A DNA stretch of 64,000 bases. It comes from Eledone cirrhosa. Lineage: Eukaryota. The notes under the pieces are model-generated. The model saw only the letters and a program-made list of their open reading frames with translations, did no database searches and was not told the origin of the DNA. Below are positions 23,199-23,392 of the stretch, in pieces. Within the stretch, counting starts at the first letter, position 1. Each line of letters starts with the position of its first letter. The position numbers and the translations under genes are program-made. The stretch spans positions 27,404,001-27,468,000 of the forward strand of contig OZ024761.1 of NCBI GenBank assembly GCA_964016885.1. The letters run 5' to 3'.

Positions 23199-23392
23199 AT
23201 AGGAACGAGTAGGACCCCGACGGCCGAGCCCAAGCCGCCTCGACGGCTAATTCTGGTCCAGAACCAGCCGCCGAAACGGCCCGAGCCCAGCCGTCGGGTC
23301 CCACTCGCTCCTATTACCCACTCTACTACCCAAAGTATTGAGTACTTTGGTGCGTTATGGTCCACCTGGTTCCTTACCACATTTCCTTCGTT
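23199..23392 (+). mobile_element. Short palindromic PLE-tail-like element, family P (T>C-altered copy)
   Basis: Homologous to 62083-62300 and embedded in (TA)n. Confidence 0.8.

Follow-up and report, generated by a model that had tools for sequence, protein, structure and literature searches.

A hairpin in the Eledone cirrhosa genome that is probably a DNA copy of an ADAR-hyper-edited RNA captured by a Penelope-like element

In a 64,000-nucleotide stretch of the Eledone cirrhosa genome (contig OZ024761.1, positions 27,404,001 to 27,468,000; here referred to as the window), a short hairpin belonging to a repeat family that we call family P carries 12 T>C substitutions, all within its base-paired part. 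This hairpin is likely to derive from a cellular RNA hyper-edited by ADAR, which the reverse transcriptase (RT) of a young Penelope-like element (PLE), referred to as PLE-A, would have captured via a template jump and copied into DNA. The changes display the signature of ADAR, i.e., they are dense A-to-G changes of one strand, they are confined to duplex and the 5' G context is depleted. The hairpin appears to be a passenger in a 1.7-kb edited RNA that was captured by a different, younger PLE and not to have moved itself, because the changes are antisense with respect to family P. A retro-copy is also indicated by an unedited relative that resides elsewhere in the genome and by the position of the edited sequence, which is found at the truncated 5' end of the element with microhomology at the junctions, the edited strand being the RNA strand of that element. 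The features of the locus are as follows (positions in the window).

19752 to 19833, minus strand: 3' tail of PLE-A, adjoining (TA)n; present on the left arm only, where it marks the native arm
19834 to 21919, minus strand: native arm of PLE-A, with pseudo-LTR, 3' UTR and C-terminal RT/GIY-YIG open reading frame (ORF), 5'-truncated
21916 to 21919, no strand: left junction, a 4-nt A-run common to the PLE-A ORF and the incoming pseudo-LTR; putative template jump
21916 to 22140, plus strand: pseudo-LTR and tail of another PLE-A copy in opposite orientation, hyper-edited (34/87)
21916 to 23617, minus strand (RNA strand): putative captured RNA segment of 1.7 kb, of which about 22150-23617 matches G000:C21:6230.2-6231.9 kb
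22298 to 22486, plus strand: first family-P hairpin with its tail, both arms edited (C at 7/21 family-T sites)
22618 to 23183, no strand: two non-palindromic repeats, an internal control, essentially unedited (0/92 and 1/58 family-T sites)
23200 to 23313, plus strand: family-P hairpin with 12 T>C, composed of the inverted arm and the native arm of a Penelope-like 3' end
23314 to 23392, plus strand: unpaired family-P tail (T>C 0/30, one T>A)
23614 to 23617, no strand: right junction, a 4-nt microhomology that the beginning of the inverted arm shares with the G000:C21-like segment and that includes one edited site
23614 to 25765, plus strand: tail-less inverted arm of PLE-A, which repeats about 19834-21991 and has 8 edited bases as A>G

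The hairpin copy was compared by global alignment with a reference copy at 62083-62302 of the window. In the paired part, 12 of 12 substitutions are T>C on the plus strand, located at 23225, 23230, 23238 and 23239 in the left arm and at 23264, 23265, 23271, 23281, 23282, 23287, 23302 and 23308 in the right arm, while the 79-nt tail differs at a single position (T>A at 23332). The original prediction, which listed about 12 T>C changes, four to the left and eight to the right, and a nearly unchanged tail, is thereby borne out; its description of the reference at 62083-62220 as a perfect palindrome is not quite accurate, since 136 of the 138 positions are palindromic. The loop is 23 nt shorter than that of the reference, with one G missing, and this short loop is common to other family-P copies and to the unedited locus described below. 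The changed fraction of T residues in the arms (12/25) differs from that in the tail (0/30; Fisher p=1.2e-5) and from the A>G fraction in the arms (0/24; p=8.6e-5), and the binomial p for the T>C changes of the hairpin is about 2e-12 even with a per-site rate of 3%. The background at conserved arm positions, obtained from 30 loci (45 arms) that were chosen by exact tail match and hence blind to the state of the hairpin, is 0/484 for T>C and 1/365 for A>G. Substitutions of G>A or C>T, as would be left by APOBEC, are absent from the hairpin in the alignment to 62083-62302. Most of the contigs and RAD reads over 23000-23395 come from family copies, and they speak neither for nor against the C bases.

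With G-U wobbles, the minus-strand RNA of the edited copy continues to form a single hairpin, and the changes are accordingly neither compensatory nor mirrored between the arms; compensatory or symmetric changes had been named as an outcome that would speak against editing. As anticipated, some sites have the disfavored 5' G context (3/12 on the RNA strand). The idea that a single minus-strand RNA hairpin was edited is supported by this lack of symmetry and by the evidence against a subfamily given below, and that idea is incomplete in that it left unsaid by which route an antisense RNA entered the DNA.

Beyond this hairpin, the segment contains two other edited regions, giving three T>C clusters on one strand within 1.4 kb, where 53 of 132 sites over the three duplex regions have been changed. 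These T sites were counted against family majorities from which the window's own loci had been removed; such majority-base scans are noisy over microsatellites, and no counts were taken there. By this measure, C is found at 12 of 24 family-majority T sites of the hairpin at 23200. In the first family-P hairpin, six T>C changes have no counterpart in the copy at the unedited locus, and three T>C changes in its tail are also found there, i.e., they are subfamily variants. In the edited pseudo-LTR, counted over 21927-22140, 34 of 87 T sites are C and no other deviation from the family majority is seen; in a comparison with the native arm, 35 of 39 substitutions are T>C. The pairing partner of this pseudo-LTR is absent from the captured piece, and its tail is edited too. 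The unpaired repeats of the segment display T>C at 0/92, 1/58, 0/15 and 0/34 sites. On the RNA strand, sites with a 5' G are edited less often than the others (5/26 vs 48/106, p=0.015), while the effects of a 3' G (12/22 vs 41/110, p=0.16) and of a 5' U/A (p=0.13) are not significant.

The edited pseudo-LTR at 21916-22140 is antisense to the 3' end of PLE-A itself and is more heavily edited than the hairpin at 23200. Pairing in trans with the PLE-A 3' end could both expose the pseudo-LTR to ADAR and bring the RNA to the transposition complex. A separate observation concerns the microsatellites of the segment: 22513-22597 and 22938-22950 are mixed TA/CA runs (27 TA, 15 CA, 0 TG), and pure (TA)n is found at the unedited locus (L092:1469-1497 and 1845-1860). 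Mixed runs would be expected if a self-pairing (UA)n RNA were edited, in a comparison that has a single comparator and concerns a kind of run that is common genome-wide.

The unedited counterpart was identified with two loop probes, for which a locus near 6.23 Mb on a chromosome other than that of the window (G000:C21) was the sole full-length match among 40 scored candidates. This C21 locus, in which the edited sites are T, contains both hairpins together with the repeats that separate them and the flanking sequence as far as the right junction. It was rejected as the exact donor: there are 16 differences other than T>C in 587 nt, a private insertion and a private deletion, and the locus has no PLE-A pseudo-LTR. 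It would therefore be a relative of the donor and not the template itself. Because the insertion is young and yet differs from the C21 locus, the true donor is presumably another haplotype or a paralogue that the assembly lacks. In a search for host exons within 40 kb around the C21 locus, 0 of 47 ORFs passed the Pfam cut-off. When the changes are placed on the plain RNA fold of this locus, the enrichment in paired positions is weak (15/87 vs 18/241, p=0.013), in part because the C>T changes of the C21 locus itself were counted. Another candidate donor, the C10 locus L118, was also rejected; it is 93% identical and does not share the flank.

Family P is abundant in the 3.0-Gb genome, with at least 13,638 exact tail matches. 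Its copies are found at (TA)n targets, each with a single tail and with an inverted arm that varies in length, features by which family P is taken to be the 3' end of a Penelope-like element. Three long copies contain no ORF tied to family P. In a long copy, core motifs were picked out by eye that we take to be hammerhead-like; the minimum-energy fold of this region is not the canonical one, and in searches of Rfam no match in the window reached the gathering score and L029 gave no hammerhead. With the tail as the 3' end, the sense strand of family P was taken as the plus strand in the window, and because the T>C changes are found on the antisense strand the hairpin would not have been edited as the family's own transposition RNA. 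Elsewhere in the window, at 63271-63509, there is a family-P palindrome with a duplication inside its right arm, in which the changes are mostly mirrored and the editing pattern is absent. At L198:5810-8461, another Penelope-type ORF (weak Pfam matches to RVT_1 and GIY-YIG) resides beside an edited family-P hairpin.

A long inverted repeat encloses the hairpin; its arms extend over about 19834-21991 and 23614-25765, with a single internal mismatch in about 2150 nt. The 82-nt tail is found on the left arm only, a layout that is equal to that in the unedited copies L206, L207, L208 and L216. Because of this single tail, the left arm is taken to be the native one and the PLE-A RNA to correspond to the minus strand. 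The native arm is 99-100% identical to many genomic copies, and the insertion appears to be very young. It is not hyper-edited: 0-1 T>C are seen per 250 nt, a lower bound as the window's own loci were kept in the comparison set, and the native pseudo-LTR has one edit-type change in 249 nt compared to 34 in the edited pseudo-LTR. Longer PLE-A copies encode an RT-like and GIY-YIG-like protein in which a DD motif and GIY-YIG-like motifs are visible; Atlas feature matches with scores of 0.95-0.98 link this protein to clusters with HTH_animal, RVT_1 and GIY-YIG, and searches of Pfam and the PDB returned no match. PLE-A is thus predicted to be an EN+ Penelope-like element, i.e., one with a single ORF composed of an RT plus a GIY-YIG endonuclease at the C terminus, and it has the pseudo-LTR, the inverted truncated copy, the tail at one end and the (TA)n target expected of this group.

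Two other PLE-A copies may be mentioned. L118 (G000:C10:21309291-21310134) is unedited, with an inverted arm that has retained the tail, and its switch point is found about 30 nt from that of the window; a switching hot spot in the PLE-A ORF is possible. In L220:4723-5124 (G000:C4), both arms of a short PLE-A palindrome carry A>G on the sense strand of the element, and this copy represents hairpin RNA of PLE-A itself that was edited and then reinserted.

The edits also reveal the order of copying. The start of the inverted arm is the exact complement of 21916-21991 (76/76), such that 8 edited bases recur there as A>G and the edited part of the arm differs from unedited pseudo-LTRs at 8 positions in 75 nt. 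Since edited bases of the foreign template reappear in the inverted arm, this arm would have been copied after the jump. It ends at the same place as the tail-less arms of the family. The edited pseudo-LTR and the native arm differ at several private sites, and the private variants of the native arm are absent from the edited pseudo-LTR; the latter was thus derived from another template, and its formation as a fold-back of the native arm was ruled out. In a single RNA, the two would be expected to pair, and yet the native arm is unedited, which together with the variants points to two templates and a later copy-back. Inverted arms could alternatively be explained by priming of both target strands, which the available text of PMC11167929 describes in vitro for a lizard element; here, this alternative would call for two identical jumps or for a single chimeric RNA.

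Collectively, the anatomy of the locus suggests the following series of events, presumably in the germ line. A minus-strand transcript would have passed through a C21-type locus in which two palindromes of family P and one pseudo-LTR of PLE-A are each antisense, and ADAR would have converted 33-50% of the duplex adenosines to inosine, leaving the unpaired parts as they were. PLE-A would then have primed at (TA)n and reverse transcribed its own RNA, which was unedited, beginning with the tail and continuing into the ORF, before switching at the 4-nt microhomology onto the edited RNA, where inosine would be read as G. After 1.7 kb a second switch, at the other 4-nt microhomology, would have led to copying back of about 2.15 kb of the fresh product, edits included, which yields the tail-less inverted arm.

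The main alternative for the capture step assumes the same editing and a single chimeric transcript, which came from a donor allele that already had the C21 flank joined to a truncated PLE-A and which was mobilized whole (5' transduction), without any jump between RNAs. According to available parts of two studies (PMC8557442, PMC11167929), host RNAs can be retrotransposed in trans by Penelope-like elements, which can also prime on both strands of the target. An independent copy on C10 has the same layout in which the ORF is followed by an inverted pseudo-LTR, and the true donor was not seen. In such a transcript, however, the antisense pseudo-LTR would pair with the 3' pseudo-LTR and tail of the element, and both would be edited, which is at odds with the one change in the native pseudo-LTR compared to 34 in the other; furthermore, the two differ at several private sites. 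This scenario is therefore considered unlikely. Deamination of adenine at the level of DNA, i.e., on cDNA, on an RNA:DNA hybrid or on extruded cruciforms, is highly improbable. Palindromes can extrude as DNA hairpins. In the accessible portion of PMC12925331, ADARs are stated to be capable of editing, in vitro, the DNA strand of such hybrids. Yet, the first-strand cDNA would be the plus strand, where A>G is then predicted, and the observed changes are T>C, with A>G at 0/24; editing of a hybrid would not spare the tail and the unpaired repeats, and cruciform damage in place does not account for a copy from another chromosome, for the untouched 2.1-kb arms or for the duplicated edits.

Errors of sequencing or assembly, such as miscalled bases in the hairpin or a fold-back chimera, are scarcely credible as the origin of the pattern. 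Reads of this locus over the hairpin are swamped by family copies, chimeric reads can yield near-perfect inverted arms and errors of a single type have entered assemblies before, though the case described in the consulted part of PMC2873906 is one of G-to-A in Sanger traces. Against such an artefact, 28,240 similar arms were called without change, the inverted arm ends where the tail-less arms of the family end, the edited pseudo-LTR is not a local hairpin, and the changes avoid 5' G and recur in complementary form in the inverted arm. The probability that the hairpin belongs to a diverged subfamily or has acquired its changes by ordinary ageing is close to nil. Family P does have subfamily variants, some of them T/C, and a common subfamily had been specified as the result that would overturn the editing interpretation. 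The nearest of 40 scored copies is, however, 92-93% identical, the T>C background is 0/484 and ageing substitutions here are C>T and G>A. Furthermore, one diagnostic TT>CC doublet is found in 20 arms compared to 28,240 unedited arms genome-wide. Further T>C changes within the pattern are carried by 12 of these 20 arms, while all transversion doublets together account for four arms, none with a further change. A second doublet probe (right-arm TT>CC) gave 8 matches in arms vs 8 in tails, i.e., no excess in arms, and three of the 8 arm matches (L156, L158 and L160) are multi-site clusters. A diverged subfamily was accordingly rejected, and capture of an edited RNA by a template jump is retained as the most probable explanation.

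Edited copies are found also at other sites in the genome. Two arm probes gave 28 matches in 26 loci. Strong changes on the same, antisense strand in both arms are seen in four of the loci (the window hairpin, L156, L173 and L191), two have weak antisense changes, one has same-strand sense changes and ten are edited in a single arm or are unclear. In the remaining nine (L174, L177, L178, L180, L181, L183, L184, L185 and L189), A>G changes on the sense strand of the native arm are mirrored in the inverted arm, and these loci represent the RNA of family P itself, edited and then copied. The mirroring is incomplete in L180, L181, L184 and L189, which bears on the source of the inverted arm, i.e., cDNA or a second pass over the RNA. 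The edits of the mirrored loci fall in the GAAA of the hammerhead-like core.

Several edited sequences adjoin truncated elements. In L196 (C4) the edited sequence follows a truncated PLE-A-like copy, in L201 (C3) it adjoins a 5'-truncated RTE-like ORF and in L193 (C1), a weaker case, it lies past the short inverted arm of a PLE-A copy that precedes it. In L204 (C403), where 29 of 39 differences in 420 nt are T>C, it is located at the truncated end of another repeat, the fixed end of which marks its 3' end. In 4/4 further strongly edited loci, and in 5/5 if the window is included, editing affects the strand that corresponds to the RNA of the neighboring element. The latter outcome would occur in 1 of 32 cases by coin toss, for loci that were chosen by edit load in a genome where repeats are dense; taken alone, the adjacency is weak evidence. 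At L204:3520-5715 (G000:C403), about 2.2 kb between two copies of one repeat family are edited on one strand, and this stretch is composed of a SINE-like repeat, a family-P hairpin and long TA/CA runs.

A-to-I editing is commonly held to leave the genome untouched. If the proposed capture is correct, about 50 edits from one RNA molecule are preserved in chromosomal DNA, where an unedited relative is available for comparison; these edits would record ADAR activity in the germ line, define a direct route from editing to mutation and allow the building of the inverted arms of Penelope-like elements, an open question, to be traced. More tentatively, several kinds of RT may routinely jump onto unrelated ADAR-edited RNAs in this genome; the edits would then be a recurring germ-line change that barcodes the two-template jump and the copy-back, hints that antisense pairing recruits the passenger and suggests that editing of (UA)n seeds TA/CA microsatellites. 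Edited arms are rare, about 1 in 1,000 by one doublet probe, and their overall impact on the genome is therefore probably minor.

Searches that covered mostly literature outside subscription journals identified no report in which retrotransposition had fixed an RNA edited by ADAR in the germ line of an animal. Editing is not mentioned in a recent annotation of octopus repeats (PMC13282606), as indicated by a term search of its available text. Clusters of A-to-G changes of the ADAR type have been described in retroviruses, avian ones among them, e.g., hyper-editing of the U3 region of Rous-associated virus and of an inverted repeat in avian leukosis virus (as summarized in sections of PMC12925331). 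As in those viruses, about half of the adenosines of an inverted repeat have been replaced by G, consistent with an RNA that was edited and then reverse transcribed. The avian retroviruses are exogenous and it is their own genome RNA that is edited, whereas here a non-viral passenger RNA from another chromosome would have been written by a Penelope-like element. APOBEC-edited LTR retrotransposons also carry clustered, strand-biased deamination scars in genomic copies, and those G-to-A scars are described for vertebrates, with invertebrates as a negative control, in the part of PMC4866542 that was available. In contrast to the present locus, where A-to-G changes of the RNA strand are found in paired regions only, the APOBEC system yields sense-strand G-to-A by deamination of cDNA cytidines and is not tied to duplexes.

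Hyper-editing by ADAR of repeat-derived double-stranded RNA in metazoans, highest in octopus, is reported in the accessible text of PMC5625713; the dense A-to-I changes in palindromic repeats and the depletion of 5' G are alike, with the difference that the edits in that study are seen in RNA reads against an unedited genome and here in the assembly itself. Finally, EN+ Penelope-like elements with inverted 5'-truncated copies, a one-sided tail and (TA)n targets have been described (available excerpts of PMC8557442 and PMC11167929). PLE-A and family P share with these elements the inverted arm, the tail at one end and the microsatellite target, and differ in that their tails are about 80 nt instead of 30-40 nt. 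The present locus adds a passenger RNA in antisense orientation to the family to which it belongs, a counterpart without the edits and junctions from which the succession of steps can be read: unlike in the elements described to date in these sources, the loop would contain a copy of foreign RNA, and the edits would mark which part was copied from which.
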